Part shown: positions 641 to 25,397 of the stretch, one piece after another
Position numbering within the stretch: the first letter of the stretch is position 1
Layout: each line of letters opens with the position of its first letter
Source: Thermodesulfobacteriota bacterium
Lineage (GTDB): Bacteria > Desulfobacterota > Desulfobacteria > Desulfobacterales > C00003060
Direction of reading: 5' to 3'
DNA length: 64,000 nt
Assembly (NCBI GenBank): GCA_034189385.1
Contig: JAXHVD010000018.1
Span: forward strand, 1-64,000
Notes under the pieces: generated by a model
Told to the model about the DNA's origin: nothing
The model's database searches: none
What the model saw: the letters and a program-made list of their open reading frames with translations, nothing else
Position numbers and translations under genes: made by a program

Positions 641-1833
641 ATGCCCAAATCACTTATCTCGGTCGTAATCGCCGTTTTTCTCGGCGCTTCTATTCTCTCC
701 TGTAAAGAACCGGGTGTTCCCACTGCAACGGAGAGACCTTCGAGCGAGAATACACTTCATTATGATGTGAACGCCCCCTTTACTTCGCTCAATCCAATAC
801 AGGTCTATGCCTCAGGTTCAACTAACATCTTTCCACTCCTTTATGACTATCTTTTTGTTCCAAACGCACAGGGAAAACTTGAACCGGTTCTTGCACGAAA
901 ATGGAGCTATGATGAAAAGAACTTCACGTGGACCATCTCTCTTCAAGAAGAAGCCCTGTTCCATGACAAAGCGCCTGTCACCGCTGCGGATGTGAAATAT
1001 TCGCTCAAGGAGCAACTCAAGGAAAAACACTTTGCGATTTACGGTCTCATCGACCATATCTCCCTTTTGTCTCGGGAGGCAATCAGCATACGTCTTAAGA
1101 AAAACGACAGCCGGTTTCCCGAGAAGATATGGACCACAGACATCGTTCCGAGACCGGGTGGCGGCGAAACCGACTACTACAACCATCCCGTGGGTTCAGG
1201 CCCCTTCCGGTTTGAATACAGAAAAGGGGAGAAGGAAGTCGGCCTTGTGGCCAATGCGGACTACTTTCAAGGTCGCCCCACAGTGGATAGGGTTGTCTTC
1301 CATTTTGTGCCGGATAAGGAGAAAACATGGACACGGCTCCTTTCAGGCGAGACCGACTTAGGCCAGGAGATCTCCCCAAAAAATTATGAGATAATAAAGC
1401 AGTACGAAAAGAGGTTTTATTTCGATCTCTACACGCTGAGGTGTTACAGTATCCTTCTCTACAACACAGCCGATTCTCTTTTTTCCGATATAAGAGTTCG
1501 GCAGGCCCTCGCTCATGCCATTGACAGGGAATATATCGTAGAAAAAATCCTGGGGGGCTTTGGAGTCGTTGCAGTTGGCCCCATGGGTGTGAATTCGCCA
1601 TTTCACAACCCTGAAGTCAAGCCTTTACCCTATGACCCGAAAAGGGGATTGAAGCTTCTTGAAGCGGCGGGTTGGTCTTACGACAAGAGAGGCCACCAGC
1701 TTGTTAAGAACGGAGAGCCTTTTGCATTCACCCTCCTTGTCTTTGAAGAAAGCCAGGTTCAAAAGCAAGTGGCACGGTACATAAGGCTTTGCTTAAACGA
1801 TCTTGGTATAAAGGTAGGCTTGCGGGTGCTTCC
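641..1833 (+). pseudogene. ABC transporter family-5 (peptide/nickel) substrate-binding lipoprotein, 5' part, interrupted by IS
   Basis: Signal peptide with lipobox-like ILSC; motifs LEPVLARKW, FHDKAPVTAADVKYS, PVGSGPF, VRQALAHAIDRE typical of DppA/OppA. Frame is broken by the IS at 1834. Confidence 0.9.
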
Positions 1834-1872
1834 CGGCGCGTTTCTGAATCAATGACCCGAACAGCGGATCTA

Positions 1873-2952
1873 TTACACTACAAGGCATGGGGTTAATGAT
1901 GTGGTGAACCCCTGGCAGGGATCCTGCGACGGATCTCGGCCGTGGCGGTTCACGTGCTTTCGCCACTTTCGTTGTTTGTCGAGCTTAGCCTTGCGTTCGG
2001 CCACAATCTGATCTCTGAGCCCACGATGACATTGCTCAGGGGTGACATAATCGATGCCGGAGTGCAAGTGCTCGGTGTTGTACCATCGAAAATATTCATT
2101 GAAGTACCCCACAGCGTCTCGCCGGTCAAGGAATCGTCCTGGGTAGGCGGGGGCGGTTTTTGCGGTACCAAATGCTGATTCCACAAAGGGATTATCATTG
2201 GGGGTTCGCGGCCGAGCAAAGAGCTGAGGCATGCCGTGCAGCTCGAACATGGTCTTTATCGAACTGGCCTTCATCTGCCGACCCCGGTCATTGACAATCT
2301 CTGGCCGTTGGGATTCAGGCAAAGCAAGAATGTTTTCTGAAAGTAGGCCGTTTTCAAGAAGTTCTTCCGCCTGTTCAGCCCTTTGATGCCAGCTGATCAG
2401 CCAGTAGATGGCTTTTCGGGAGAACTCATCGAGCAGCAAATACAGATACAAAAACACACCCCTCTCGTAGGTGGGCAGGTAACTGATATCCCAACACCAG
2501 CGCTGGTTCGGCCCGGTAATCTCCTTTCGGACCGGGGGCAAGGACCGCCCATTGTGATGACGGCAGGGCCCCCTAAGGCTCATCAACCCTTCGGAACATA
2601 GAATGCGGTACACGGAAGAAAAAGAGACAAAGAACATGTCTAGATCCCATGCCGTAACAGCTAGGATACGGTGTGAAAGGTCTGCGTATGCTTGCTCGGT
2701 GGCCATGGCTACCACGGTCCTGCGTTCCTGGGGCAGAAGGCTGTGGACAGGGGCTTTGGGGCCGGGCTTACCGTTAACCAGGCGCTGTCCCTGTCTCCAT
2801 AGACGCCACCATCTGCTCACCCGTCTGCGGCTGACCATCCACATGGCACAAGCGCGGCTCTTGGAGATCCCCTTGGCTTTAGCGTTTTCGATAGTCATCA
2901 GCATGGCAACTTTGTGCTCTTCTTCAATCCATGTGCCCTCTATCTTTCCCAC
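1873..2952 (-). CDS. IS3-family transposase OrfB (DDE integrase core)
   Basis: PNQRWCWDISY, LLLDEFSR, NDRGRQM, PNDNPFVESAF, WYNTEHLHSGIDYVTP motifs of rve/IS3 transposases. Confidence 0.92.
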   Translation of the reverse strand: MGKIEGTWIEEEHKVAMLMTIENAKAKGISKSRACAMWMVSRRRVSRWWRLWRQGQRLVNGKPGPKAPVHSLLPQERRTVVAMATEQAYADLSHRILAVTAWDLDMFFVSFSSVYRILCSEGLMSLRGPCRHHNGRSLPPVRKEITGPNQRWCWDISYLPTYERGVFLYLYLLLDEFSRKAIYWLISWHQRAEQAEELLENGLLSENILALPESQRPEIVNDRGRQMKASSIKTMFELHGMPQLFARPRTPNDNPFVESAFGTAKTAPAYPGRFLDRRDAVGYFNEYFRWYNTEHLHSGIDYVTPEQCHRGLRDQIVAERKAKLDKQRKWRKHVNRHGRDPSQDPCQGFTTSLTPCLVV

Positions 2953-3311
2953 GAACCCCCATTGGTTTTTTTTCGAAGAATCGCCAATTCCACGGCCATC
3001 TCAGCTATCACACGTTCTTTTTCTTGGAGATCCTGCTTCAGGGCATCGTAATCTTGCTGGCAAACTGTCTTTTTGGCAGGACCGGGCCGCGCTGCCAGGC
3101 GGTCCAGGGCGCCTTCCTTTACCATACGCTGGATCCTTGCCAGGTCGCTCGAGTATAGACCCTCGCGGCGCAACACCTCTCCAACAGGGGTCTCTGATCT
3201 CTGGGTCTCAAGGAAGAGCTGATACTTTTTTTCAGCGGACAGATAACGGCGCTTCTTTTTTCCGGAAGGCGATGAATCTTCAACAGGCTGATTCTTGTCG
3301 GTCACACTCAT
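2940..3311 (-). CDS. IS3-family transposase OrfA (HTH plus leucine zipper)
   Basis: RRYLSAEKKYQL...VLRREGLYSSDL HTH and C-terminal coiled coil. Overlaps OrfB in the -1 frame with an A8 slippery run at 2966-2973. Confidence 0.88.
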   Translation of the reverse strand: MSVTDKNQPVEDSSPSGKKKRRYLSAEKKYQLFLETQRSETPVGEVLRREGLYSSDLARIQRMVKEGALDRLAARPGPAKKTVCQQDYDALKQDLQEKERVIAEMAVELAILRKKTNGGSWER

Positions 3312-3450
3312 GGTATCTTCCTTTCTCTGCTGCCTGCTGGGGAACTCCGGTCGCCCTATGGGCTCCCTCCGTTCCCCAGCCCAGCTCATCATACCATGTA
3401 GTGTAATTCAATCCCACTTTTGGGACACAAAATCGGAAACGGGGGGTTCC

Positions 3451-4391: not shown

Positions 4392-4835
4392 TCACCGGTA
4401 GAATCTGAACGACGCTTGGCCATACTGTGTCTTGGATCTGGGTGAAGCTGATCCATGCCCAGACCTTGACAAGTAGTTCTTCAGACGCCCTTCTAGGGTC
4501 ACATAGATCCCCCTGTCAATAATCCGCTTCCAGTCTCTATTGAAATCCGACGGATAGATTTCAATCAGATCATATTTGTTCTCCCGGTAAACAATCCGCT
4601 TGTACTCGTTGAGGCGTGCATTCTTCTCGTTTCCGTTCATACCAAGGTATTCGATGAGAATATGATAATCGTTGAGGCTGAAGTCAGGATACCAAATTCG
4701 CTGCTTCCCGCTGTCAACCACTAGCACTGGCCTTTCATAGGTGAAGTCTATTCCTCGGTCCTGTAAATAGGTCCCGATTCTTCTCTCGCCATCCGACTTG
4801 TAATTGTTCCAGAGCTTGTTCTGGTAGGCCGCCAT
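4392..4835 (-). CDS. Small PD-(D/E)xK-type endonuclease-like protein
   Basis: KSDGERRIG..L...GI.F.YE, YPDF, LIEYLG, K...Y pattern typical of Vsr/DUF559-like restriction-endonuclease fold. Confidence 0.65.
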   Translation of the reverse strand: MAAYQNKLWNNYKSDGERRIGTYLQDRGIDFTYERPVLVVDSGKQRIWYPDFSLNDYHILIEYLGMNGNEKNARLNEYKRIVYRENKYDLIEIYPSDFNRDWKRIIDRGIYVTLEGRLKNYLSRSGHGSASPRSKTQYGQASFRFYR

Positions 4836-5223: not shown

Positions 5224-6444
5224 ATGGACTCCCAGATCCAGAGATTAGATAAGCTACCGTACCTATCGATATTTTCGTCTGAAATTGAGGTTATGGCCGG
5301 ACTTGCCGTTGAGTGTGGCCAAGTTGAGACCGGAGGCGAGACATATGCCCTATTGAGCCAAGCTGGATACCCAGTAATCATGCTGGTGACCCCCCCTGGT
5401 CCGAATGCTGTGCACGAGTGGGCGCACTTCCGACAAGACCTTGAATTCTTTCGGAAGGTAAATCCGTTGCTTGAAAACGATTTTGGCCTGCAATACTCCG
5501 GCAGTTGGCACTGCCATCATTATCTTGGTATCAGGGGTCCTTCGGACGGAGATGTTCGGAGCACACACTCCATAGCTTTAAGGAACGGATACCGCATACA
5601 GAGCCAGATAGTGCTGACCTTTGAAAACGGCTACCATGGGCCGCCGCTTTCCCGGGGAAGCGCACCGTTCCGCCAGGAGCCGGCTGCTGAGACAGACAAC
5701 AGAGCTGTTAAGCAAAACACTTTTGTACGTCTAGTCAAAAGACGGCCTCTCCCTCCTGCCCCCAATGCATACGACCCTGCAGCCGTGCAGATCCACGCCT
5801 TTCTATATTTAAATGCCGCCAAAGGCAAACCCATGCGGTGCCCAATTCGAGTAATCCCTGGTATGAGCCCTTTCAGGGAGGCCATTGTAAAAACGTTCCC
5901 AGAATTACCTGAACTGGCTAAGGAAAAGTCATTTCCCATGTCGCGCATTGTACTGGACCACTTCCGGCAGGACGGGTTGGTGGGCACCCCCTCCGAGTTG
6001 CCTGCATCCTTGGCAACCCAGTACCTTGAACTTCCCATCCAGGTGAGAGAACGGGCCGGAGTTGCGTTCAAGTCAGGATTCGTCATTTTCTCACTTCCTT
6101 TGCCGGTACAAGGTGGCAGAGTCATGGTTTCGTGCAGCAACGCCCCACCATACGAAGCAAAAGCAGTCTACGCCACCTCGGTTTTGACGGCGAACAAACC
6201 TGTAGAGCTAACAAAGGATGTATTGGGACAGGCCTCTCGTGTAAGCCTAAGTGCTATTTACACCCGGGCTGTGGACTATGTGCGCCTCAACAGTCGCCAA
6301 AACGAACAAGGCAGCAATTTTGAGGATAATCGTCACAGGTTTCGCCGCCTTCAGCTGAAAAGAGTAAAGAGAAAGCTGCCTAGGCAATGGAAACAGCGGC
6401 TTTCACGTCAGACCTGTGAGGAGATACAGGATTGTCAGCCCTAA
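5224..6444 (+). CDS. JAB/MPN (JAMM) metallo-isopeptidase domain protein with uncharacterised C-terminal region
   Basis: ETGG and WHCHHYLGIRGPSDGD = E...HxH-x8-S-x2-D JAMM motif. Confidence 0.85.
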   Translation: MDSQIQRLDKLPYLSIFSSEIEVMAGLAVECGQVETGGETYALLSQAGYPVIMLVTPPGPNAVHEWAHFRQDLEFFRKVNPLLENDFGLQYSGSWHCHHYLGIRGPSDGDVRSTHSIALRNGYRIQSQIVLTFENGYHGPPLSRGSAPFRQEPAAETDNRAVKQNTFVRLVKRRPLPPAPNAYDPAAVQIHAFLYLNAAKGKPMRCPIRVIPGMSPFREAIVKTFPELPELAKEKSFPMSRIVLDHFRQDGLVGTPSELPASLATQYLELPIQVRERAGVAFKSGFVIFSLPLPVQGGRVMVSCSNAPPYEAKAVYATSVLTANKPVELTKDVLGQASRVSLSAIYTRAVDYVRLNSRQNEQGSNFEDNRHRFRRLQLKRVKRKLPRQWKQRLSRQTCEEIQDCQP

Positions 6445-6899
6445 GCTACAAAAAGAGACTCAGGACGGAGGCGGCGATCATGGCTGAAGAGATGCCCCAG
6501 TTCCGGCTGTTTCAAACAAGAAGCGGTGCCCACTACTTCAGGGGCTGGCAAAAAACCACAATCGGGGGAAGGAGCTATGAATTCAAGCTTGTCATACCCA
6601 TGCGATACCCGAATGAAATGCCGAGGTTGTATGTGATTTATCCAACAGAACTGTGGCAGCACGGCTTTCGGCGCTTGGTGAACACGGAGGGAGTTTCTCA
6701 CGGTTTTCACACCTTGGGAAACGGACCCGGAGGGTGTGTCCAGATCTGCCATTTCAAACCTGAACTCTGGGACGCATCCAGAACCTGCGTAGGCGTCTTC
6801 GCCAAAGGCCTACTCTGGCTTGAGGCGTACGAGGTCCACTTACGAGGCGGTAGGAGTATTGCCGATACCCTATCCGAATGGAAAAGGAGTCAACGATGA
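6432..6899 (+). CDS. Prokaryotic E2 (ubiquitin-conjugating enzyme-like) protein
   Basis: FKLVIPMRYPNEMPRLYV..P, H-T-L-G...VQICHF...W pattern matches the UBC fold (YP..PP, HPN...ICL...W) with a Cys at the catalytic position. TTG start with GAGGAG RBS. Confidence 0.8.
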   Translation: MSALSYKKRLRTEAAIMAEEMPQFRLFQTRSGAHYFRGWQKTTIGGRSYEFKLVIPMRYPNEMPRLYVIYPTELWQHGFRRLVNTEGVSHGFHTLGNGPGGCVQICHFKPELWDASRTCVGVFAKGLLWLEAYEVHLRGGRSIADTLSEWKRSQR

Positions 6900-7069
6900 G
6901 CAGAGAGGAGGACAGAATTCGACGAATTATGGAAGACATGGCAAGGGGGGATGATATTGGTCACAAGCTAGTTTATGACCGCGACAACAAAACGGTGCGC
7001 CCGGTCTCTCGCTTTCATGACCCAGACTGGGCCACATCTATAACGCCCTCTGATGCGGATTTGTTCTAA
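6896..7069 (+). CDS. 57-aa acidic peptide of unknown function between E2 and E1
   Basis: AAGGAG RBS and ATGA overlap with the E2 stop; MSREEDRIRR...TPSDADLF. Confidence 0.75.
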   Translation: MSREEDRIRRIMEDMARGDDIGHKLVYDRDNKTVRPVSRFHDPDWATSITPSDADLF

Positions 7070-7087: not shown

Positions 7088-8338
7088 GTGATCGTACTTT
7101 TCGGCGAAATGTTGCAGGGGCTTCGGGGAAACCGAGAATGCAAGGATGCCTACTTCGCATGCTGGCACGAGGAACTCGTGTATACCCTGCTTCCTGATGC
7201 GAGAAACAGCCGCGCAGTTCCCGGTAGTATTTGTGCAGCCAGTGATGACGAAGACATCTCGATCCAGGGCACCGGAAAACCCGACGACGAGGTAAGGGTT
7301 GTCGTGCACAGGGCAGGAAGTACGTCCGAAAAGGAAACAACTTCACTGCCGATAAAGGCTACTGGCCACGTGCGTGACAAGACAGGATGGAAGCGGGTAC
7401 CAGTTCAGATTGTTCCTGTCAGAGCTGAGCTCTTCTCCAGGTTTCGCGGCCTGCTTGAGACTCCCATTTTTTCCGACAAAATGGTGCTTGTGTTTGGCCA
7501 AGGGTCAGGTGGCTCTTTGGTAGCCCTGGAGCTGGCGAAATCAGGAGTCATGAACTTCAATTTGGTGGATGATGATCGTCTCGAGGTCGGCAACGTGGTC
7601 AGGCACGTGGCAGGTTTGTCACACGTCGGACGTTATAAGACCAAGGTTATGGCCGATTTGATACGAGAGAAGAATCCTTACGCGACAGTGGAAACATGGG
7701 AAGAGAAAGTCAGCTGGAAGAATGCTGAAGCGGTCAGAGATCTGGTGAGGAAAGCCGACATCATCGTCTGCGCCACGGACGAGCGTCAGTCGAAGCTTGT
7801 CATCAACAGGTTGTGCGTGGAGGAGAAAAAGCCTTGTGTCTTTGGCGGGGCTTTCAGACGGGCCTACGGAGGGCAAGTTCTTCTGCTCAGACCTTATGAG
7901 TCACCATGTTATCAGTGTTTCCTCATGCTGTTGCCGGATCATGCGGGGGACGAAGAAATATCCAGCCAGGAACAGGCAGATGGCCTCGCCTATACCGATC
8001 GACCCGTTCCGGTAGAACCGGGTCTTTCGACAGATATCGCACCCATCAGCATCATGGTGGTCAAGCTCGTGATCCAGGAACTGCTAAAAGGTACAGAAAC
8101 CACCCTCCGGTCCCTTGACGACGACCTAAAGGCGTCCTGGTATCTGTGGCTCAACAGACGTGAACTCGGAACCCAGTACGAGGGACTCCAACCTTTGGAA
8201 TTCAACGTGGGTGGCATGCATATTCTTCGGTGGTATGGGGTTGATGTGAAACGACATCCAGCCTGCCCGGTCTGCGGCAATTTCGAGGAGTGGCTGGCGA
8301 AGCAAAGGGATGCGGAGCCCCTTATCGCGTATGACTGA
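7088..8338 (+). CDS. E1/ThiF-family adenylating enzyme with extra ~125-aa N-terminal domain
   Basis: VLVFGQGSGGS nucleotide loop, DDDRLEVGNVVRH, GRYKT, CATD, and Zn pairs CYQC / CPVC. Confidence 0.92.
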   Translation: MIVLFGEMLQGLRGNRECKDAYFACWHEELVYTLLPDARNSRAVPGSICAASDDEDISIQGTGKPDDEVRVVVHRAGSTSEKETTSLPIKATGHVRDKTGWKRVPVQIVPVRAELFSRFRGLLETPIFSDKMVLVFGQGSGGSLVALELAKSGVMNFNLVDDDRLEVGNVVRHVAGLSHVGRYKTKVMADLIREKNPYATVETWEEKVSWKNAEAVRDLVRKADIIVCATDERQSKLVINRLCVEEKKPCVFGGAFRRAYGGQVLLLRPYESPCYQCFLMLLPDHAGDEEISSQEQADGLAYTDRPVPVEPGLSTDIAPISIMVVKLVIQELLKGTETTLRSLDDDLKASWYLWLNRRELGTQYEGLQPLEFNVGGMHILRWYGVDVKRHPACPVCGNFEEWLAKQRDAEPLIAYD

Positions 8339-8371: not shown

Positions 8372-11143
8372 ATGACGGAGCAGGTTCTAACATACCAGGT
8401 CTCAGAACTGCCAGATCCAAGGTATCCCCAATATCAGGCGATGGCAAGAGGAGACGTCTTGTCCTGTGCTTGTTCTGATATCGAGCAGCTACTCCGCGCG
8501 GTTGTCAACCTTCCTGCCGGTTCCACGTCGGTGGCGATCAGGTTCGTGTTCACTCCAAGACCAACACTAGCGGAGGCACAGAGCCGTCTGGCAATCTACG
8601 TGATTTGTCGAGCTCAAAATGAGACGATCGGTGATTGCCTGAGAGTGCTGTTTGAGAACGGACCGTTGACTAAGTACTACCGTCTTCAGCCGACGGAGGA
8701 ATTGCGGGCGCCGTCTAAAAGTCTGCAGGCAGGCTGCAGACTTTGCCGGCGCGAGGACGCCGTCGACCCGCTTCACACGTCTGAATTCAACAATAGAATT
8801 CCATCTTATTACTATACGGTGCGCTTGTTGGAGCCCAACGCCCACAACGATTATTCAGACCTTGATCGAACGCTCGGAGGCGTGAAGTCGAATGCTATTA
8901 TAGATGTGTGCGTGGAACCAACAGATATGTCACCAGAACTAAAAGCACATACCCGATACCTGTCCCGACTGCAGTCCATAAACAGGGTGTGGGATGTCGA
9001 TGAGGATGAAAGTTTCGAGATGACCGACTATTTTATGAGCGGTCAAGACTGGGCCACTATGGGGAATCAAGGTCTCAAGCCGCTGCGTTACCGGGACCCT
9101 CTGGCCGACGACATCCTTCGCTGTCAGCAACACTTCCATGAGAGCCTTCGTCAACCTCACCTGCTGTTTCACATTATGGTGCTGGCAGAGACTGCCGCTG
9201 TTGCGCACCTGATAGGATCAGTGGTGGCGGAGTCAGCCTTTCAAAATGGGAGCTATAGACTACTAGCATTCGGCAAGGATGCTCAGTTGTTCGATGAGGC
9301 CATTCAAAGTCTGAAGGTGACCCGCGTTTCATGGTCCTCCATTCATGAGTTCATCTTTCCGGGAAGAGATGTCGCACCCTACTTGGAACTTGCCCGCCTC
9401 AGCCATACTGCCACCGTGGATGAGCTTGCGGGCGCCTTCCGCCTGCCTGTGGCCGCTAGCGAGTCGCCCAGCTGCATTCGAAAAAACACCGATCCACCAT
9501 ATGAAGAAGTCTCAGACCTACTTGTGGCGGGTTTCGATCAGGAGGGCTCCCACGTTGGCAGGGGGCCACGTACCCGGGGCATGTGCAAGCATATGACAGG
9601 CACTGGCGCCTCCGGGTTCGGCAAGACCACAAACATTTGGAACATCGCACTTCAGCTCTTCAAAAACAATATTCCATTTCTAATCATAGAGCCAGTTAAG
9701 ACCGAATACAGGATACTGAAGACACTTCGAAATGAGGAGGACAAAAATGCGCGAGGTCTCGCCAAGGCGCTTGAACTGTACACGCCGGGCGACGAACGTA
9801 TTTCCCCATTCCGTCTGAATAGACTGTCACCCCAACCAGGCATGTCACTCGAAGAACACATCGAAAATACTCTGGCCTGTTTCCTGGCAGCCATGCCTGT
9901 CTCGGGACCGTTACCAGCGCTACTCAGAGAGGCGCTTGAGCGTGTCTATGAGGAATACCCTGATCCGGACAATCCTCCAATCATCGCTGACCTAGTTGCT
10001 TCCACCGAAAAGGTATTGGCGGAAAAGGCATACTCACCGGAGACGAGCTCGGACATCAGAGCAGCATTAGAGGTGAGAATAGGCATTCTCACGCACGGCA
10101 ACGTTGGTAAGATCTTTCAATGCCGCAAGAGCATCCCCTCCATTGACCACTTAATGAAAGTTCCGGCTATAGTAGAACTTGATCGGCTCCATCCCGAGTG
10201 GAGCTGCTTGTTGACTTTCTTTCTACTGACAGGCATCCGGGAATACTTAAGAACTGTTCCGAAGGCGGATAATGAGCCACGCTACGTAATCATTATCGAA
10301 GAAGCTCACAACATTGTAGGCCGAACCAGCCAGGCCGCGGTGTCGCCTGACGTTGCTGATCCGAGAGCATTCGCTTCAGAGTATGTCTGTCGCATGCTTG
10401 CCGAACTCCGAGCCCTTGGCGTTGGGATTGTCATTGTGGACACACTTCCGTCAGCAGTTGCTCCAGAGGTTATCAAGAACACAACGACAAAGATCGCCTT
10501 TCGCCAGGTGGCAAAAGAGGACCGTGAGGAGCTGGGTGCTTCCATGCTGTTGAACGAACTCGAGATGGAAGAGATGGCACGTCTGAACGTTGGCGAAGCA
10601 TTCATCTTCACTGAGGGCTACCATAGGCCACGGAGGATCCGGACGGTGAACCTCTATGAGCAATTTGACTTCACGACTGACACCATGAACGAGAACATCC
10701 TTCCGTATGTTCAGGATGACGCGTGGTTCTGTCAAGCCGAGTCTGAGAGATTGATCTCCGAGCTGACGCAGCTTCGAGAGGACATGGATCACTTCGACGA
10801 CCAGCGATTCGAGATTGCCAAGGACCTGGCGATCCTGCTGGCCCGTTTTCCTGCACTGTTAGCACAAACCGCCGGGGATAAGAATCCCACCGTAATGGAA
10901 CAGCTGAAACACGAGACACACGGTTTGAGAAGGCGCCTGTTATTTTCCTACCGGTCCTTCTTGAGGCGCTCATACAAGAAATACCTCGTCCCCGCGGGCT
11001 TGTGTGAGCGCCAGGCTCCAACGGTCCGAGAGATGCGTGAGCACTTGGTTGACCGTTTTGAGTCCTTTGTCAAGAAAGACATACAAGAGGTTCTCGGTAT
11101 ACTCGGCACATTTCTTCGCCGTTTAGAGACGAGCATGCTTTAG
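8372..11143 (+). CDS. HerA/FtsK-superfamily P-loop ATPase with large N-terminal domain
   Basis: Walker A GASGFGKTT, IEPVKTEY, Walker B IIIEEAHN, ELRALGVGIVIVDTLPS, VIKNTTTKIAFR. Confidence 0.85.
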   Translation: MTEQVLTYQVSELPDPRYPQYQAMARGDVLSCACSDIEQLLRAVVNLPAGSTSVAIRFVFTPRPTLAEAQSRLAIYVICRAQNETIGDCLRVLFENGPLTKYYRLQPTEELRAPSKSLQAGCRLCRREDAVDPLHTSEFNNRIPSYYYTVRLLEPNAHNDYSDLDRTLGGVKSNAIIDVCVEPTDMSPELKAHTRYLSRLQSINRVWDVDEDESFEMTDYFMSGQDWATMGNQGLKPLRYRDPLADDILRCQQHFHESLRQPHLLFHIMVLAETAAVAHLIGSVVAESAFQNGSYRLLAFGKDAQLFDEAIQSLKVTRVSWSSIHEFIFPGRDVAPYLELARLSHTATVDELAGAFRLPVAASESPSCIRKNTDPPYEEVSDLLVAGFDQEGSHVGRGPRTRGMCKHMTGTGASGFGKTTNIWNIALQLFKNNIPFLIIEPVKTEYRILKTLRNEEDKNARGLAKALELYTPGDERISPFRLNRLSPQPGMSLEEHIENTLACFLAAMPVSGPLPALLREALERVYEEYPDPDNPPIIADLVASTEKVLAEKAYSPETSSDIRAALEVRIGILTHGNVGKIFQCRKSIPSIDHLMKVPAIVELDRLHPEWSCLLTFFLLTGIREYLRTVPKADNEPRYVIIIEEAHNIVGRTSQAAVSPDVADPRAFASEYVCRMLAELRALGVGIVIVDTLPSAVAPEVIKNTTTKIAFRQVAKEDREELGASMLLNELEMEEMARLNVGEAFIFTEGYHRPRRIRTVNLYEQFDFTTDTMNENILPYVQDDAWFCQAESERLISELTQLREDMDHFDDQRFEIAKDLAILLARFPALLAQTAGDKNPTVMEQLKHETHGLRRRLLFSYRSFLRRSYKKYLVPAGLCERQAPTVREMREHLVDRFESFVKKDIQEVLGILGTFLRRLETSML

Positions 11144-11149
11144 GAGGAT

Positions 11150-11674
11150 GTGGTTATGGCAAAACGGAGAGATATTCCTTCAAGACGCGATGTCAATGAG
11201 AGACTTGAATGTGACAAGAGGAAGATGGAGGCCAAAGAGACTGATCTGGACAAGATAGCATCAGATGTTGAAACGGTTAGAAGAACCTTGGAAAGACTCG
11301 ATTTTCGCGGAACCGCAGAGGGCTCCAGAGAAGCAGAAGAATCTATTGAAGGCGCAGAGGATGTTGCAACAGATGCGTTCGATAAAGAAGACGGCGCCTT
11401 GGAACGCATCCAGACTCACAATCGGGAGTTCGGGGCAGAGCTTGATGACCGAAAAGGGGCGTCAGAGTCTGATCTGAAAAAGGTGACTGATGTGACCGCC
11501 AGCATCAATAGAAATGAGGTTGGAGATAAGTTGAAAAAAGCCAAGGAGGCGGTTTTGAGCGATGTCAATTTTCTTGCTGCGCAGATTGAACGGGCTCGTG
11601 CAGCAAGGGAACGAAGTGATGCGATCCAGGAAAGGCTTAAAGGCCGGGTTCAGAAGGGAAGAAGGAAACGCTAG
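11150..11674 (+). CDS. Coiled-coil/helical hypothetical protein
   Basis: AGGAGG RBS; highly charged heptad-rich sequence. Confidence 0.75.
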   Translation: MVMAKRRDIPSRRDVNERLECDKRKMEAKETDLDKIASDVETVRRTLERLDFRGTAEGSREAEESIEGAEDVATDAFDKEDGALERIQTHNREFGAELDDRKGASESDLKKVTDVTASINRNEVGDKLKKAKEAVLSDVNFLAAQIERARAARERSDAIQERLKGRVQKGRRKR

Positions 11675-11675
11675 C

Positions 11676-12293
11676 GTGCCATCAATTAAATACAGGAACC
11701 AGAATAGCTCTGGGAAAGACCACGACCTTTCCTTTGAAGATGTGGGCCCCTTCATGACCCATACGGACAAAGTGCTGGCCCAACTAGCCCAAAAAGTTAG
11801 GGTGTTGCCTAAGGTCGATGAAAAGGGTCGTTCTGAATGTCCGTTTGCAGAAGACCTTTATGCCGCCAAAGAAGAGGCTGCAGAAAAGGTCCGTGAAGTG
11901 CTCGATAAGATGCCAGGATACCTGCGCGCGGTAGACCGAGAGATACTCAGATGCAAACGTAATCTCGCTCAGGTTCGCAGCGACGCCGCTTCCCTTCATC
12001 TGGATAAAGCACAAGGGAAGTACCACAGCGCACAGGAAAATTACCGTTTTCAGCACAAAAAATACATGCAGGTTCGGCAGAGACTGATTGATCTGCGATC
12101 CCAAGCTCAGAAGGCACTCCAGAAGGCCTGTGCCAATAAGTGGCCGGCAGGTAAACCCCAAAAAAAGTTTCATGGTTCAGCGCCAGCAAGAATTGCACCC
12201 GCTTCACACGCCAAGGGATCACTTGGACCATCGTTGGCGACCGAGGTCAATAGCCTGTTGTCGCTGGATCATTTCAGTCGAAAGGACGTTTAA
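11676..12293 (+). CDS. Basic coiled-coil hypothetical protein
   Basis: Probable GTG start right after the previous stop (ORF track 11562..12293); helical, charged. Confidence 0.65.
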   Translation: MPSIKYRNQNSSGKDHDLSFEDVGPFMTHTDKVLAQLAQKVRVLPKVDEKGRSECPFAEDLYAAKEEAAEKVREVLDKMPGYLRAVDREILRCKRNLAQVRSDAASLHLDKAQGKYHSAQENYRFQHKKYMQVRQRLIDLRSQAQKALQKACANKWPAGKPQKKFHGSAPARIAPASHAKGSLGPSLATEVNSLLSLDHFSRKDV

Positions 12294-12294
12294 G

Positions 12295-14211
12295 GTGGAA
12301 GCCTGTTCGACGACAGACCAAGAGGATACACCAAGCGGAATCTGGCTATTAGATAGACTACTACTTGGAGTCGGAGGTAAGGATCCACTGCTTGTAAGTC
12401 TTCATGTCAGTTCAGGCGACGTTCAGCAGCTAATTAAACTGCCACCCGGACATAGTGCATACGCCATCGACATAGATCTGGATGGCACGTCAGCTGCTGT
12501 AGGAACCAAGGGGGGGTTGGTCTACTTGATTGACGACTTGAACGACTGCGGGCCTGACGGAGCTATCAGGCCGAAGGAGCTGGTCCAAGGAGGACCAGTG
12601 CTGTCAGTCTGCTGGCTGAACAGGACACTTCTGGCTGTGAGTGATGCACTTGGGAGGTGCTGTGTTTGGAACTCTCAGGAACAGTCACCTCCTCGGCTAT
12701 TTGAAGTTATTGATGGTGTCGTGTGCAGCTTACTGAGGTTGCCGGACGGGCTGTTAGTGGGGATTACTTCAACGGGTCATCTTCTCTTCTGGCACCCACC
12801 GGAGTTGTGCCTAGTTCATATGGTTAAGATAGCACCCCCCCCTTCTATGAGTGGCCTGGTACGCATGGTCTATTGGCCCTGCGAGCATGCCCTGGCCTGC
12901 CCTGGTGCTGGAGGACGTTTGACATTGTACGATCTGGAAAAGCGAGCCGTTGTTGAAACGTCTGCACACCAAGGCGATTTTTATGCAATTTCAGTATTGG
13001 GAAAAAAACTCTTCACGGTCGGCTTCAAGGAGTCTCAGCTAAAAACGTGGGATGGGGGGCTGGAGGATCCTACGTACAGTCTTCGCGCACCTACAGGAGT
13101 GATTTCTGCTGGAGTCGGAGGATGCCCGCCCGCTGAGATACTGCTGATTGAGGCGCGGGGTGCTGCCAGCGCTTGGACGCTCCAGGCAGGAAAGCTAAGG
13201 CTTGCCCGCCAACATGCTGGGCAAGACTATCGTGCTGTCTGTTGTCCACGGGCAGATAGGGTACAGATAGTTTACGCTCAACAGAGAAGGGAGGAAGTGC
13301 AGCGAATAGTAACGAAGATCGGGGAACACAGCGCTCAGGCAGATGCTGATAACACCGAGGAACTGCACGCCCGGTTGATCGATTTGAACTGCGAACACGT
13401 GTCTTTGGCTCTTCGCGCTGATCAAGCCTATCAGAGAGGAAACATCGTTCAGGCACTGACACTTTATTCCTCTTTGATACGCATACTGCCGACTGATGAT
13501 CCAAATGCTTGTGCATCAATGGAAAGATATGCAGCCATGCTTGCAAAGGCCTGGCAGATCCCAGAAGCCGCACAAATTCTCACACGGATTCAAAAACTTG
13601 ATCCTGACTATCAACTTACCGCTCAAACTGAAAACCTCGTTCACTTGGCCAAGATCTTGCGCGATAGACACTGGGTGATCAACCCCGGCATGCCGATAGA
13701 GGACATCATTCAATCGGCTACTGCCATTGGCAGGGGCTTCATAGGTCGCTACGTGATTAATAAGGGGCATCCGCAGGGCTGCGGCTCGACTCAACTGGAG
13801 GCAGCAGAAATTGCTGAGAAGTACGAGCAGGCCCGGCGGGAATCCGGGGAAACAAGTCTGCCTCCAGCAGGCGCCGAAAGAGTGTGGTGGCTGTCGGAGA
13901 TGCAGGTCCAAAAGATGGACCTTGTATCCTTCGGAGAGGGCCGCACCAACCCAATCAGAGGGCTCCAGCTTGCTTTGCAGGTACTGACTACAGCATCAAA
14001 GACCACCGTAATCCTCACGGTTCTATTCGACTGGCGTGATGCGTCGAAAGCTGTGGATCTGGAAGCACAAAACGACCAAGCACACAATGCCTTGACCCAA
14101 ATCAGGAATAGAACACTGTCTAATTCTTATCTGGGAGGAATACACAAGACACTGCAGCACTGTCTCCGCAGACTTCTAACCGAGAGATCGTCATACCAAG
14201 GAGCAAGTTAA
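12295..14211 (+). CDS. WD40-like beta-propeller plus TPR-like protein
   Basis: Repeats such as GHSAYAIDIDLDGTSAAVGTKGGLVYL, GPVLSVCWLNRTLLAVSDALGRCCVWN, AHQGDFYAISV; C-terminal helical TPR-like part (ALTLYSSLIRILP, AAQILTRIQKLDPD). GTG start inferred. Confidence 0.7.
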   Translation: MEACSTTDQEDTPSGIWLLDRLLLGVGGKDPLLVSLHVSSGDVQQLIKLPPGHSAYAIDIDLDGTSAAVGTKGGLVYLIDDLNDCGPDGAIRPKELVQGGPVLSVCWLNRTLLAVSDALGRCCVWNSQEQSPPRLFEVIDGVVCSLLRLPDGLLVGITSTGHLLFWHPPELCLVHMVKIAPPPSMSGLVRMVYWPCEHALACPGAGGRLTLYDLEKRAVVETSAHQGDFYAISVLGKKLFTVGFKESQLKTWDGGLEDPTYSLRAPTGVISAGVGGCPPAEILLIEARGAASAWTLQAGKLRLARQHAGQDYRAVCCPRADRVQIVYAQQRREEVQRIVTKIGEHSAQADADNTEELHARLIDLNCEHVSLALRADQAYQRGNIVQALTLYSSLIRILPTDDPNACASMERYAAMLAKAWQIPEAAQILTRIQKLDPDYQLTAQTENLVHLAKILRDRHWVINPGMPIEDIIQSATAIGRGFIGRYVINKGHPQGCGSTQLEAAEIAEKYEQARRESGETSLPPAGAERVWWLSEMQVQKMDLVSFGEGRTNPIRGLQLALQVLTTASKTTVILTVLFDWRDASKAVDLEAQNDQAHNALTQIRNRTLSNSYLGGIHKTLQHCLRRLLTERSSYQGAS

Positions 14212-15848
14212 TGCTCAAGTTCTGTTTGACCTGTAATAGCCTCGTAACACCTGAAGACGATATGTGTCCGGACTGCGGCTTGAGATTCAGACAAAACACT
14301 GACCACAATTGTTTCTTATCGGGTCCGTTTGTGCATCGGGCCCCACTGGTGAGGCTTGCCAGGGGTGCCAAACTGATGAGTCGCTTCCTGATAAAGGGGC
14401 ATCTTGGCGAAGGTCGTTTCGGCACTGTTTACGAGGCCGAAGACAAGATTCGTTCGACGGACGTAGCCTTGAAAGTCGTTGAGGCCGAAGCCCGCAACAA
14501 CGACACCGCTTGGTCCAGAGTTCAGCACGAGATGCTGATCAATAGAAGCGTCTCTGACTTCTCCCACGTTATCCAGCTATACGAGCTGCATTGTGTGCCG
14601 TGGGGAGCAACCGGCTTGCTGGTTTTGTCAATGGAGTATGCTAACGGCGGCACTTTTAGGAGATGGTTGTCGGAACATGCAAATGATTGGCAGGCTCGCA
14701 CCGATGCAGGGATTGGGTACTTCAAGCAGGCATGTCACGGTGTGGCAGCCTTTCACGACGTTCAAATAGCCCTACTTGATGTTAAGCCAGAGAACATGCT
14801 CCTTCATGACAGCATTTTAAAGATTGCGGATTTCGGGGCGGCCAAGAAAGATTATCCTACCCAAAACCCAAATGATTTCTGCTCAGAGAAATCTTCACCG
14901 AGGGAAAGTACACCGTCCTACATGAGTCCAGAACACTTCACTGCTCACGACGCAGACGATGTGGACCATAGGGCTGACATATATTCACTCGGTATCGTTC
15001 TATATGAAGTGCTTCACCCCAAGTGCAGGCTGCCTTTCAACGGCTCGTGTCAACAGCTTCAACGACTGCATCTGAAAGCGCCGCCGCCTGACCTGCCGGC
15101 TGATTGCGAGAACCTGACTCGTGTGGTCGCTCGATGCCTTCAAAAGAATCCATCCAGTCGATACCAGCACGTCTGGGATCTCCTTGAAGACATGGAGCAC
15201 GGAGCCTCTGCCGAGCCTAATCCAGCTGTTTTGGCTGGGGCGGGTATGAACGGAAGTGGGAACGAATTGGAGGAAAGTTTTAACAGGGCTTCTCAGTGTC
15301 TTTCCGATGGCATGCTCAACGAAGCTGCGACGCTGGCAGAGGAGGTGCTTCGTTTGAATCCTGACCATGCTGGGGCCAAGCGACTCAGGGGAGAGATTGG
15401 CACAAGATTTAGCCAGGCGGAAGAATTCTATCGGGATATTTTGCAGCATGTCGAGACCGGAGATCTGGGCGAACTGACAACAATGGTTGAAGAGGCCGTC
15501 AGGATTTATCCCGGTCACCCTTCGGGGGACTTGGCCCAGGCCAGGCTTGCAGCTCGAGTTCGCCGATATCGCGAAGCCATGGAAAAGGGTGAAGTTGCCT
15601 TAAGAGCAGGTCATTGGGGATTCGCACTCAACTGGTTTCGGAAAGCACTGCAACTTCACCCCGGAGCGGTTCAATTGGGAAAGATAATAGAGTCTCTGGA
15701 CCAGATCGATCAAATGACTCAAGCGGTTGATGAGGCTCTCGTGGCAAGACATTTCAATAAAGCCCAGTCTATTTCTCGTTTTATGGATGTTTTAATAGAT
15801 GAGATGGAAGCCAGCATACCGATACTGAGAGAAGCGGGAACTAGATGA
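14211..15848 (+). CDS. Hanks-type Ser/Thr protein kinase with N-terminal Zn ribbon and C-terminal TPRs
   Basis: CxxC-x10-CxxC; LGEGRFGTVY, VALK, LLDVKPEN, DFG, YMSPE, DIYSLG; TPR-like AEEVLRLNPDH, FRKALQLHPG. Confidence 0.92.
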   Translation: MLKFCLTCNSLVTPEDDMCPDCGLRFRQNTDHNCFLSGPFVHRAPLVRLARGAKLMSRFLIKGHLGEGRFGTVYEAEDKIRSTDVALKVVEAEARNNDTAWSRVQHEMLINRSVSDFSHVIQLYELHCVPWGATGLLVLSMEYANGGTFRRWLSEHANDWQARTDAGIGYFKQACHGVAAFHDVQIALLDVKPENMLLHDSILKIADFGAAKKDYPTQNPNDFCSEKSSPRESTPSYMSPEHFTAHDADDVDHRADIYSLGIVLYEVLHPKCRLPFNGSCQQLQRLHLKAPPPDLPADCENLTRVVARCLQKNPSSRYQHVWDLLEDMEHGASAEPNPAVLAGAGMNGSGNELEESFNRASQCLSDGMLNEAATLAEEVLRLNPDHAGAKRLRGEIGTRFSQAEEFYRDILQHVETGDLGELTTMVEEAVRIYPGHPSGDLAQARLAARVRRYREAMEKGEVALRAGHWGFALNWFRKALQLHPGAVQLGKIIESLDQIDQMTQAVDEALVARHFNKAQSISRFMDVLIDEMEASIPILREAGTR

Positions 15849-17071
15849 CGTTAAATGTTCATAGAAAGCCACGGGTTTCTGGCCCAACTCGGAGGGTTCG
15901 CCTGAAACAGTTGGAGCCCGACCGTCGGGAGGTACTGAAAAGACAGTCCACGGTCGAACTAGTGCGGCGTATCGTTGAAGATTCAGACGAACTAGCTCTC
16001 AGGGTTTTCCTAGAGACACGCACCCTGTTTAGATTTGGGGACGAACCGCAGCTGTTGCTTCACCAGTTTCTGATGAAGTTGCGGGACAGATCGGCTTGTG
16101 CCGAAGGTTACAGCATGACCGATATTGATCTAGCCGATTGTGCCTATGATATGACCCTTTCAAAGTACTGCAATCTGCCCGGCGCATCAGAAAGCGAGTC
16201 CAGTCCAGAGAGCTATATCGTCCGGGGAAGAAACGTCGACTGTAGAAACTATTACCGTGCTTTCCTGCTCACAATGCAATGGATAATGGATCAGGGGCAC
16301 TTGAGCACCCAAGCCGATGAAGAACTGCAAGCCGGCAGGCTCCTCCAGATAAGGGTCTATAAGAGTTTCAATTTGTCAAAATTAGAATGTCGGCGTCACT
16401 CACCGTTTTCGATCAGGTACACATGGGAGGTGGATGGAACGAGGCTGTATCTATACTATCCGTCATACATGACATCAAAGAAGTTTAGGGCGTGGCTTGA
16501 GGAAAATACTGAGGGTATTGACCTGTCGTCACCAAATGCTCAAGCACAAGTCCAATTCCTCATTGACGCCAATTTGGCCAAGGGCTACCATATTTCGTTT
16601 GATCAGTTGGGAATATGCCAAGTTTTGGCGGAAAAACAAAGGCTTTCCTTGATCGAGTTCCAAGAGGGCGTGATGTTTGTAAAAAGCCTCGCCGTAGCCG
16701 TCGCCAAAGAGAAAGCAAGAAACATTGATCGATTGCGTCCCGCTATTAGGGGGCTTGGTAAAAAAACCCTCGAACACTTAATCTTAGAGATATACTCAGA
16801 CGTTACGGACGATGAATACTCGGTGTCCAGGATGGCACGCCGGTATGGATTAAGCAAGGCCACTTTGAGTCGTTTCGCAGGGAACACATGGTTCAGAGAA
16901 TCGCAGGAGGCTGGAGCATCAAGGATCCCTGACTTATGGCAGAATACCGCAGAGACACTGGCGGGAAATCCGGCATTTATGGAGACGGTCATGAGTTCGG
17001 GCGTTGGTGGTGGTATAGAAAGAGCACTGCAACTCATGGAGCACTCGGAAAGTCTGAAAAATGCCAAATAG
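15845..17071 (+). CDS. Hypothetical protein with C-terminal HTH, possibly a divergent sigma-factor-like regulator
   Basis: N-terminal STVELVRRIVEDSDELALRVFL resembles the ECF sigma region-1.2 pattern; YSVSRMARRYGLSKATLSRF is HTH-like. Confidence 0.5.
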   Translation: MTLNVHRKPRVSGPTRRVRLKQLEPDRREVLKRQSTVELVRRIVEDSDELALRVFLETRTLFRFGDEPQLLLHQFLMKLRDRSACAEGYSMTDIDLADCAYDMTLSKYCNLPGASESESSPESYIVRGRNVDCRNYYRAFLLTMQWIMDQGHLSTQADEELQAGRLLQIRVYKSFNLSKLECRRHSPFSIRYTWEVDGTRLYLYYPSYMTSKKFRAWLEENTEGIDLSSPNAQAQVQFLIDANLAKGYHISFDQLGICQVLAEKQRLSLIEFQEGVMFVKSLAVAVAKEKARNIDRLRPAIRGLGKKTLEHLILEIYSDVTDDEYSVSRMARRYGLSKATLSRFAGNTWFRESQEAGASRIPDLWQNTAETLAGNPAFMETVMSSGVGGGIERALQLMEHSESLKNAK

Positions 17072-17777
17072 CAAACGCCTGTACTTCATTCCCATCATAG
17101 CGCGTGCGCTTGAGAGTGACCACCCACGCAAAGCCATGCGAGAGGCCTTCGACAGAATCTACAAACTCGGCAAACAACCCGAGTACAGGCTGGGATTTCG
17201 TCAGTTCCAGGACTTTGCACAGGCGGCGCTGAAGTCATTGGTCCAAAGACCTCAGAAGGGAGATGAACAAACACTCGATGTGGTCTATCCTTTAGTATAC
17301 GATCTGGCAACCGATACCTTCGAGGGGAGGGAAAAGCAAAAGGAAACCCTCTTAACCGCACTGAGTAGTCATCCTGAGTGGCTCGCACAGTACCGAAGCA
17401 TCAAAGAAGAGGCTCAAGAGCTTCTAGCCACCAAAATGTTGATTGAGGTTGAAGTTTTAAGAGAGGAGGTGGTTGTCGGCTCATTTTCTGTTTCCGCCAC
17501 TCCAGCGTACCTGAGTTCGATTATCCCAGGCGAATATACGGTTCGTCTTTCAAACGGAAGAGTTCTCTGGCAGGGGGAAATCAGCAGCGAGGACGTCATA
17601 TGGGCTTTCGCATTTCCAGGCAAAGACCTGGCCATGGCGGCAGAGACTGAAATGCCCAAGCAGAAACCAACGAGAACGCTGTCTCTTATGGCCGGAGAGC
17701 TAATTCTGGACTTCTTTGCTGGGCTTGAAAGTGGCAGCATAGGACTGAGAAAGGCCCAACGAGTCCAAGAGGAATAG
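17061..17777 (+). CDS. Hypothetical protein (possible partner of the upstream HTH protein)
   Basis: Overlaps the upstream stop; helical N-half, beta-rich C-half. Confidence 0.6.
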   Translation: MPNSKRLYFIPIIARALESDHPRKAMREAFDRIYKLGKQPEYRLGFRQFQDFAQAALKSLVQRPQKGDEQTLDVVYPLVYDLATDTFEGREKQKETLLTALSSHPEWLAQYRSIKEEAQELLATKMLIEVEVLREEVVVGSFSVSATPAYLSSIIPGEYTVRLSNGRVLWQGEISSEDVIWAFAFPGKDLAMAAETEMPKQKPTRTLSLMAGELILDFFAGLESGSIGLRKAQRVQEE

Positions 17778-17784
17778 GCAGACT

Positions 17785-19452: not shown

Positions 19453-19473
19453 AGAAAAGCCAGGGAGGAGAAA

Positions 19474-20055
19474 ATGGGCTCACTGGAATATCTGCTCACC
19501 GCAACAGATGAGATGGCTATCGCCAGAAGCGTGGGAAGTCCTCACGATGAGGCACGCATGCGTTATGCTCTCCACAGCAACAGTGTAGAGAGTTTTGAGG
19601 AATTCACGGACGTGATTACCGATTACTACAACTACCACGTCGGTCGATGTGTAGTCCATGGGGGATATCTATCTCGTACTGAGGCAGCCGGGCGAGCCAA
19701 AGAAATCCTGGATCGAGAATACCGACGTCAGGGCGGAGACATAATCTCTGCCTACAAGGATGCCCGTGACGGCACCAGCGGCGGTTTGAGAGTGGTGTTG
19801 GATAGAATAGCAGAACATCTTAAGGCGGAATCAGTGGAGCGATATATTCGAGAGGCCTTTGACAGGTACGTGGAACCCAATTCATGGGAGCAGAAAGTGG
19901 ATATCATCCACCAGTTTATCGCCCAATGTGGCCAGCATCTCTCGTCCTCGATGCGCACAGACCAACCGGAAAGGTATGCCCACAATTATCAGGAACTCAT
20001 CAGGACGTATGTGGAATCGTTGAAGAAGACATCATCCGTTTTCAGACGGTTGTAA
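19474..20055 (+). CDS. Hypothetical all-helical protein, paralogue 2 of a local ~190-aa domain family
   Basis: GGAGGAG RBS; aligns by eye with the C-terminus of 17785..19452. Confidence 0.8.
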   Translation: MGSLEYLLTATDEMAIARSVGSPHDEARMRYALHSNSVESFEEFTDVITDYYNYHVGRCVVHGGYLSRTEAAGRAKEILDREYRRQGGDIISAYKDARDGTSGGLRVVLDRIAEHLKAESVERYIREAFDRYVEPNSWEQKVDIIHQFIAQCGQHLSSSMRTDQPERYAHNYQELIRTYVESLKKTSSVFRRL

Positions 20056-20069
20056 TTTAAGGGACTAAA

Positions 20070-20648
20070 ATGTCAACAAAACTCGAGCAACTTCTGGAAA
20101 GCATCGACCCGTCCCGGACCGTTGACGAAGTATCAGCCAGGGTAGACCAGGCCATTAATTCCTTCTCCGTGCAGAGAGCTATTATAGAGGACTGGAATGA
20201 ATACGAGAGTTTTCTCTCAGACTTCTACCGTCACCTGTTGACAACGGTGCTGAGAATCGGCTCCGGCGTCCCCGAAAACAGGGAATTGTACTGGAGTCAA
20301 TGCGCAGATCTTCTCAACAAGGCGTTTGGTACCAGCGGGCACAAGGCAGCCTTTGAGATGGTGAGGACTGGAAAAGAGGGGGGTCTGTATCAAGTCCTCA
20401 AGACCATTGGCGACCTGGTGGCGGAAAAATATGCGAAGAATGAAATTTCGGCGCGGATCTCCGACTACTGGCAAAGTCTCACCGTTGACGGACAGCTGGC
20501 AGCATCAGATGAATACCTGCAGCGATACGGTCACTTACTCCCCCAAGAACTGACTGAAGGGAGCGCTGCCAGGATCAGGGCGAACTTCCCAAAGGTGCTT
20601 GAAGAACACCCCAGCATGGTTCGTCGGATGAGACAAATTGGAAGGTAA
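20070..20648 (+). CDS. Hypothetical all-helical protein, paralogue 3
   Basis: Shares LE.LL, FY.H, GGL..VL and G..LP..L blocks with neighbours. Confidence 0.78.
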   Translation: MSTKLEQLLESIDPSRTVDEVSARVDQAINSFSVQRAIIEDWNEYESFLSDFYRHLLTTVLRIGSGVPENRELYWSQCADLLNKAFGTSGHKAAFEMVRTGKEGGLYQVLKTIGDLVAEKYAKNEISARISDYWQSLTVDGQLAASDEYLQRYGHLLPQELTEGSAARIRANFPKVLEEHPSMVRRMRQIGR

Positions 20649-20742
20649 TATGCAGCCTCCTTAGACTTCAGCTGAAACACACGTCCCCTTTCTGCCGCTT
20701 ACAGGTCACAAGCCACACTTAGGCGTAGAAAGGAGGAGGGCC

Positions 20743-23821: not shown

Positions 23822-23909
23822 AACACCCTGCCCATTTCATCCGCAAACAGGGGAAAAGCCCCGAACCCAATTTTCTGGAGGTTCGGGACTTAGCCCAGCG
23901 GATGAGAAG

Positions 23910-25305: not shown

Positions 25306-25397
25306 AACCTCCTTCCCTTGCATGTGGGTAAGTTTCTTGCTAGAACCGATTCGGTGAAAATCAGCGGAAGGAGGTGGTAATAGGAAGGAGTGCAGCC

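Follow-up and report, generated by a model that had tools for sequence, protein, structure and literature searches.

The question raised by this locus is what role is played by a 57-residue open reading frame lying between the genes for an E2-like protein and an E1/ThiF-type adenylase. The window analyzed, a 64,000-nucleotide stretch of a Thermodesulfobacteriota contig, had previously been read from its letters alone, and the original prediction held that this peptide occupies the modifier position without being a Gly-Gly ubiquitin-like protein (Ubl), and that it may be a new type of protein tag or E1 substrate. Overall, gene order, the C-terminal boundary of the peptide family and co-variation with E1 support the proposal of a non-Gly-Gly, non-β-grasp E1 substrate, from which we infer attachment to proteins. 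Specifically, the peptide is very probably the tag activated by this bacterial enzyme set, and one that is likely attached to other molecules. The relevant features are collected in Table 1.

Table 1. Coordinates of the module and of the element that carries it, numbered from the first letter of the window.
Feature	Position	Strand	Basis or remark
JAB/MPN metallopeptidase	5224-6444	+	PADLOC JAB E 6e-7; Prok-JAB in relatives; start codon uncertain
Stand-alone E2/UBC-like protein, 139 aa	6480-6899	+	Pfam UQ_con in relatives; PDB matches
Shine-Dalgarno AAGGAG	6884-6889	+	Inside 3' end of E2 gene
Modifier-like peptide	6896-7069	+	Open 57-aa ORF ending TPSDADLF; F57 codon 7064-7066; D53 conserved
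E1/ThiF adenylase, 416 aa	7088-8338	+	Pfam ThiF E 8e-36
E1 G141, in glycine loop	Codon 7508-7510	+	Co-varies with peptide end
HerA/FtsK-like ATPase, first gene of conserved downstream block	8372-11143	+	
Rest of long operon type	11150-23821	+	Same order in related loci; family matches
Primase-polymerase	23790-24971		
Tyrosine integrase	25374-26756		
tRNA-Arg	26842-26917	-	

With respect to the reading frame itself, the strong ribosome-binding site and the coupling to E2 that were first noted are both present, the peptide ATG being placed on the E2 stop in an ATGA overlap (6896-6899). Two features had been missed in the earlier reading, namely that the peptide shares its frame with the E1 gene, from which one TAA and six codons separate it, and that many relatives are fused to E1. 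An assembly error at the peptide stop was ruled out. The stop is real because contigs from three runs in two studies, one of which is possibly this DNA's own source, match across it without difference, and because in the related locus L040, whose E1 is 87% identical, the peptide ends at the same Phe with TGA replacing TAA and with E1 in a different frame. The host genome holds a single copy each of the peptide, E2 and JAB genes. No family in Pfam, NCBIfam or PADLOC matched the peptide, and the best Pfam E value among 75 members of its family was 0.0013, in three members.

It had also been stated that no ORF of the cluster ends in Gly-Gly. This holds for the genuine genes but not for two out-of-frame shadow frames, one of 44 residues across the E2-peptide junction (6820-6954) and the other a 37-codon stop-to-stop stretch at 7459-7569. 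Clear homologous stretches for the junction frame are limited to L043 and L053, and a stop interrupts it in both; not being conserved, it was rejected as a modifier. A GG-ending frame lies nearby in 5 of 88 loci checked, and in two of those five it is the peptide's own tail.

Relatives of the E1 were obtained by an alignment search, a genome scan with the single E1 having found none. The protein search returned 948 relatives; among the 120 matches listed, in which lengths and fusions were judged, E1 proteins of about 460-500 residues carry a peptide homologue fused at the N-terminus. A set of 116 loci was assembled, and the peptide profile was searched in the 97 of them with at least 300 nt upstream of E1. 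The expectation that a small ORF is conserved between E2 and E1 homologues was borne out, as the peptide lies directly upstream of E1, alone or fused, in 94 of these 97 loci (91 at E ≤ 1e-3). In the three missed by the profile, the copy is displaced by an insertion (L091, which gave the sole profile match elsewhere), is a divergent fused copy recognized by eye (L117), or is absent despite enough upstream DNA (L112). A profile search of 1.84 billion representatives gave 306 clusters at E ≤ 0.001, mostly of 56-75 residues among the 150 listed; four long repeat proteins among these 150 were judged spurious. The peptide family is widespread, and its gene is conserved. Searches that gave nothing further were those of viral contigs (96 pattern matches, no relatives), of 301 genomes of the phylum with the E2 as query (own genome the only match), of the ESM Atlas with the peptide (no usable match) and of PDB sequences with the peptide (one match, at E 1).

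The core order JAB-E2-peptide-E1 is constant across loci, with E2 present in 93 and JAB in 83 of the 116, many of which are short contigs. Most long loci carry the same downstream block as this window, and a short form consisting of the core only is found in Actinomycetota, Myxococcota and others. After dereplication to 83 loci, the peptide stands alone in 49 and is fused to E1 in 34, and this state switches 16 times on the E1 tree. Tandem two- or three-copy or duplicated peptides, in the manner of poly-ubiquitin precursors, were seen in P0263, P0248 and P0203 and at L095:9584-9980.

The working end of the peptide was examined in 121 short relatives, 27 of 148 having been left out as long or without the Asp anchor. 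Conservation stops four residues past the Asp of a TPED motif, a position designated D+4. No relative ends at D+0 to D+3, 12 of the 121 end exactly at D+4, and the rest continue for 1-17 unconserved residues. The D+4 residue is Phe in 49, Ser in 36, Tyr in 14, Ala in 8, Trp in 7, Gly in 6 and Asp in 1, and the peptide of this window terminates exactly there, at F57, rather than in the mature Gly(-Gly) of a Ubl. Conservation of the C-terminus, as originally proposed for checking, was therefore found as a sharp D+4 boundary but not at the literal C-terminus, which varies with a tail of 0-17 residues or a whole E1 behind it. The accompanying suggestion of maturation by the JAB peptidase fits this boundary, the fusions and the JAB co-variation described below, but the present copy needs none because it already ends at F57. 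By analogy, the tailed, fused and tandem forms resemble ubiquitin-type precursors whose working end a peptidase frees. Asp-ended copies that end exactly at D+4 were also observed (L013:5700-5880, approximate; L082:6153-6353; P0248, P0203 and P0254); in L013 and L082 such a copy precedes a fused one that has Phe as its end and Gly141 in its E1. This second class of copies could serve as a decoy, as an inhibitor or as another tag.

As for the fold, an AF2 model built from 75 sequences places helices at residues 3-16 and 51-56 and strands at 23-28, 33-38 and 46-49 (pLDDT 69, pTM 0.39). This predicted succession of helix, β-hairpin, strand and short helix, taken from a moderately confident model, is not in β-grasp order, which together with the terminal Phe agrees with the original description of the peptide as neither Gly-Gly-ended nor β-grasp. 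Fold searches with the model yielded no clear match: the best had a Z score of 2.9 among 48,161 chains, and the best Foldseek E value was 1.8; MbtH-like entries in the fold search were weak (E ≥ 1.8) and were not accepted.

The evidence that bears most directly on E1 comes from pairing the D+4 residue with every column of the locus's own E1, E2 and JAB across the 83 loci dereplicated at 90%, with one Ile-ended locus excluded for its unreliable alignment. The top column is E1 position 141, within the G-x-G-S-x-G ATP loop (z 44), followed at z 11.5 by A229, which adjoins the Mg-binding D231. An aromatic end is accompanied by Gly141 in 56 of 56 loci, and a Ser, Ala or Gly end by Val, Phe, His or Ile in 27 of 27. 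The equivalent residue is Leu in ThiF and in the housekeeping ThiF/MoeB paralogue of this genome. On an E1 tree built without the co-varying columns, peptide-end class and position 141 each change 16 times, and all 10 independent starred pairs agree (10/10, p=0.002); because of these repeated changes and agreeing pairs, kinship does not account for the coupling. Among 32 held-out fused proteins from outside the loci, three of which were unreadable, the rule is obeyed by 28 of 29 (16/16 aromatic and 12/13 small ends, with P0112 the exception). The same pair, D+4 with position 141, also comes out on top when all 21,569 peptide-by-E1 column pairs are compared without supervision (z 15.2, next 7.2). 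None of the native C-termini of the other operon proteins tracks position 141, and nothing above noise appeared between the peptide and E2.

A weaker echo of the E1 coupling, of moderate strength, is suggested by the JAB alignment. Here end class is tracked best by G109, which lies between S107 and D110 of the S-x-x-D motif (z 11.5, next 4.8), and independent pairs go in the same direction in 6.6 of 9 cases and in the opposite direction in 0.0 (median p 0.016). The corresponding unsupervised pair ranks 3rd of 15,176 with z 6.1, not clear of noise, and the Gly is retained in four Ser-ended loci.

In structural terms, adenylated ThiS has its carbonyl placed in a glycine-rich pocket, according to the accessible text of the review PMC12596934, and a contact between F57 and G141 would follow from this known role of the glycine loop. 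Co-folding of the peptide with the E1 dimer, one of the checks initially proposed, lends weak support, with a score of 0.58 versus 0.06 for the best control (contact agreement at least 88%, partner pLDDT at least 58). Among solved pairs 116 of 157 attain the co-fold mark, and among mismatched pairs 2 of 215; of those that do, 18 solved and both mismatched pairs lie at ≤0.60.

Catalytic residues are conserved in the enzymes of the module. The JAB peptidase conserves E35, H96, H98, S107 and D110, so its metal ligands are intact as in Type II CBASS; its C-terminal region is uncharacterised. The E2 matches E2 enzymes in the PDB (best E 0.001), and 22 of 48 family members match UQ_con at E ≤ 0.05. 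Its invariant residues are H77, C90 and W97, and C90, kept in 80 of 81 sequences against only 70 of 81 for S73, is likely the catalytic Cys. The E1 has one adenylation domain and conserves, across 102 sequences, the ATP-site residues R118, D161, R172, K184 and D231 and the Zn cysteines. These same sequences hold no conserved crossover-loop Cys, and the crossover-loop Y302 is invariant in 102 of 102. Because an invariant crossover Tyr works as the E1 nucleophile in Bub, as described in the accessible text of 10.1101/2024.11.21.623953, Y302 probably acts as nucleophile here, by analogy.

The predicted E1 model (pLDDT 81, low-confidence in the Tyr302 loop) matches MoeB with Z 27.4 and rmsd 2.3 over 230 aligned residues. 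Its residues 1-387 align with 172-600 of Cap2 7to3_A, covering linker and E1 (Z 19.2, rmsd 5.2, 329 aligned), and the modeled E1 thus appears to be built like Cap2 minus the fused E2, with a Cap2-linker-like N-terminal domain. The best PADLOC matches to E1 are 'E1-E2' models of about 430 positions (E 2e-33); enzymes related to it may therefore already be classed as CBASS, with the peptide overlooked.

Taken together, these observations, which come from sequence comparison, make it probable that the peptide serves a four-gene JAB-E2-peptide-E1 conjugation module as its dedicated modifier and is attached to protein targets. It would be made in one of two states, either mature, as here with its end at F57, or as a precursor in which the working residue is followed by a short tail, additional copies or a whole E1, and JAB would cut right after the D+4 residue, as the boundary, the fusions and the JAB co-variation suggest. 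A homodimeric E1 would then bind the C-terminal residue in the ATP site and adenylate it, a reaction that for F57 we consider highly probable. Gly141 would leave space for the aromatic side chain, space that Val, Phe, His or Ile would fill in Ser-, Ala- or Gly-ended relatives. Without an E1 Cys, the acyl group could pass by analogy through Tyr302, as in Bub, or straight to E2 Cys90. The route through Tyr302 is reasonably probable, and Cap2 without its E1 Cys can still hand over directly to E2 in vitro, according to the accessible text of 10.1101/2022.03.31.486616. E2 would finally join the tag to target proteins, and JAB would take it off again.

The co-variation is evidence of fit and not of turnover, and the alternatives to this modifier reading differ in what is made of that fit. 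A first point is that it bears on activation alone, such that the same residue could be activated for transfer to a small molecule, a lipid, a nucleotide or the peptide itself, yielding a RiPP-like product or carrier. Precedents lie in secondary metabolism, where ThiF-like enzymes activate the carboxylates of peptides and of N-acyl-Tyr/Phe (accessible text of PMC12596934), and in Atg8, which goes onto a phospholipid (10.1101/2022.03.31.486616, same qualification), and the fold matches of the E1 model include MccB, PaaA, AclA and Atg7. Nevertheless, we consider such an acceptor unlikely, as E1 is accompanied by an E2 with an invariant Cys and by an intact JAB in most loci, and the N-terminal domain of E1 is aligned to the linker of Cap2, an element reported to position E2 (accessible text of 10.1101/2022.03.31.486616). 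Moreover, scans against protein-family libraries picked out no tailoring enzyme, exporter or sulfur donor among the operon genes.

A peptide that acts as a pseudo-substrate plug or pro-domain blocking E1, the true substrate being another protein with a matching end, would fit equally well and show identical co-variation with position 141. Its fusion to E1 in two-fifths of the dereplicated loci (34/83) is compatible with this role, and short modules adjoin CBASS or Thoeris genes that are possible substrate sources. Yet no other operon protein follows the rule with its native C-terminus, two neighbouring CD-NTases inspected by eye have no comparable tail, the sixteen joint changes of pocket and peptide would be difficult to reconcile with a third, fixed substrate, and an intact ATP site should react with a free carboxylate; we therefore regard a plug as quite improbable. 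Least of all do we expect the peptide to be a split-off structural N-terminal piece of E1, or this copy a nonsense mutant of a fused gene, which is highly improbable. The shared frame in this window and the common fused forms would be explained, but the stand-alone state is the majority (49/83) and recurs across the tree, L040 ends alike although its stop codon and frame differ, the coupled E1 residue sits in the catalytic loop and not in the N-terminal domain, and tandem peptide copies exist.

If the peptide is accordingly taken as a modifier, the system works like Cap2/Cap3, Bub and Bil and misses a defining feature of each. Like this peptide, Pup and UBact are small bacterial modifiers without the ubiquitin fold; unlike it, they are joined by PafA-type ligation through a terminal Glu/Gln, with no E1 or E2. 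The following comparisons reflect the accessible portions of the sources named. Type II CBASS shares an Atg7-like homodimeric E1 with a linker-type N-terminal domain, an E2 with Cys, a JAB partner and a non-β-grasp substrate (10.1101/2022.03.31.486616). It differs in that Cap2 is an E2-linker-E1 fusion, whereas E2 and E1 are separate genes here and E1 lacks the crossover Cys, and in that its substrate is the cyclase tail, ending in Gly or Ala, rather than a dedicated 57-residue gene of a family whose end is usually aromatic. Cap2/3 also act on Gly-ended TIR tails (10.64898/2025.12.03.692087). No SMODS/NTase domain was recognised among the operon proteins scanned, and with it no CD-NTase and effector pair.

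The Bub (6E/DUF6527) system likewise has an E1 without a crossover-loop Cys and with an invariant Tyr there, and a modifier that may be fused to an enzyme and freed by JAB (10.1101/2024.11.21.623953). Y302 may correspond to BubCD Y370, and BubCD aligns over the adenylation domain only (E1 model 124-396, Z 23.2). In contrast to the present module, BubA is a Gly-terminated β-grasp Ubl and the Bub E2 relies on Ser in place of the invariant Cys (10.1101/2024.11.21.623953), and JAB is here a separate gene; BubE/DUF6527 had no match in Pfam scans of the operon proteins. BilABCD resembles the module in its four genes (modifier, E2, JAB and E1) and lack of an E3, but BilA is a β-grasp Ubl and BilD has an IAD-AAD-CYS arrangement with a catalytic Cys (10.1101/2023.09.26.559546); 8tyz_A, used for the Bil comparison, aligns only over E1 model 124-400. 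The RiPP ThiF-like adenylases MccB, PaaA and OxzB adenylate non-Gly carboxylates, including N-acyl-Tyr/Phe, but act without E2 or JAB, and MccB uses an RRE clamp where the E1 N-terminal domain here aligns with the Cap2 linker (PMC12596934). In our literature search the peptide family was not described, although subscription papers and supplements may list such operons. In their accessible text, operon types 6a-6e (Iyer 2006, PMC1779556) do not cover JAB-E2-peptide-E1, and Kaur 2020 (PMC7159879) treats Ubl-based systems only.

In terms of genomic context, the operon probably lies on an integrated element. The peptide profile had no match in any of 24 genomes of the same genus, which vary in completeness, and this absence, along with the primase, integrase and tRNA-Arg in which the block ends, fits mobile DNA. 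The 3' 25-mer of the tRNA-Arg recurs on contigs C14 and C22 as possible attachment sites, and about three copies of an 11-bp unit occur at 26752-26790. Downstream of E1, the 12-gene block at 8372-23821 is order-conserved across Desulfobacterota, Planctomycetota and others, and most of its members are without a family; as a whole it resembles a large conflict system that has not been described. Following the first ATPase, it encodes two coiled-coil proteins, a β-propeller/TPR-like protein, a Ser/Thr kinase-TPR, proteins of 408 and 238 residues without known family, a Lon-C-like protein, related helical proteins and a second HerA/TrwB-like ATPase. Four segments of the block (18890-19452, 19474-20055, 20070-20648 and 23171-23821), made up of the C-terminal portion of the Lon-C-like protein and three separate ORFs, all match a common set of stretches in related loci, which suggests that a helical domain family is present four times. 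PspA/WXG100 identities for the 174-residue coiled-coil and 408-residue families were unsupported, with only weak coiled-coil or HTH matches.

A few short loci have an evident defence context, in that the core lies beside SMODS and TIR-SAVED genes (with an HTH-JAB fusion; L023:7788-13042), two SMODS-like genes and S-4TM (L076:4001-10068) or ThsB/TIR genes (L014:8089-12568). For long loci the case is weak: defence-type PADLOC matches occur upstream in 7 of 27 loci (104 ORFs), comprising type I MTases, PbeA, DUF1848, MAD-like and ZorD-like proteins, with generic kinase and sigma-54-type matches set aside. Sigma-54-type (RtcR/PspF-like) activators lie upstream of JAB in 4 of the 27 loci scanned (L011, L031, L047 and L095). 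Overall, context hints only weakly at a role in conflict or defence on mobile DNA. In actinobacterial short modules, JAB is directly preceded by an additional shared gene of about 330-375 residues (L026:6958-8085, whose product had no Pfam match; L028:7129-8109; L032:7021-8094; L038:6944-8068), a candidate target or partner. Elsewhere in the window, a small PD-(D/E)XK-like ORF (4392-4835, minus strand, PADLOC E 3e-8) diverges from the operon and has a homologue upstream in L060, and in the region 641-3392 a family-5 solute-binding protein gene is apparently cut short at 1855 by a transposase/integrase-core element (1873-3392, minus strand). Unrelated, secreted-looking large proteins are encoded on the minus strand at 30707-34354 (1215 aa) and 39501-41090 (529 aa, with repeats and, by eye, a dockerin-like end).

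At its fullest, the picture would be of a widespread tag pathway in which a non-ubiquitin helix-hairpin protein is joined through a C-terminal Phe, Tyr or Trp (Ser, Ala or Gly in relatives) by a Tyr-ester to Cys-thioester relay, with a lock-and-key in the E1 ATP loop that has flipped some 16 times to give mutually exclusive systems on mobile conflict islands; we hold this whole to be an even call. On the modifier reading, which we favour with fair confidence, this is a bacterial ubiquitination-like conjugation with a new modifier class and a specificity switch. In the accessible portions of the literature compared, dedicated modifiers of E1/E2 pathways are β-grasp and Gly-ended, the sole non-Ubl substrate being the CBASS cyclase tail, and an aromatic-ended modifier with another fold, if true, would break both rules and would put a name to the substrate so far missing from a group of 'Ubl-less' E1-E2-JAB operons. 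The specificity reduces to a one-residue rule, Gly141 for aromatic and Val or Phe for small ends, that is testable with four small soluble proteins. The rule suggests natural orthogonal E1-tag pairs for protein labelling, and it may account for the preference of canonical E1s for a terminal Gly.
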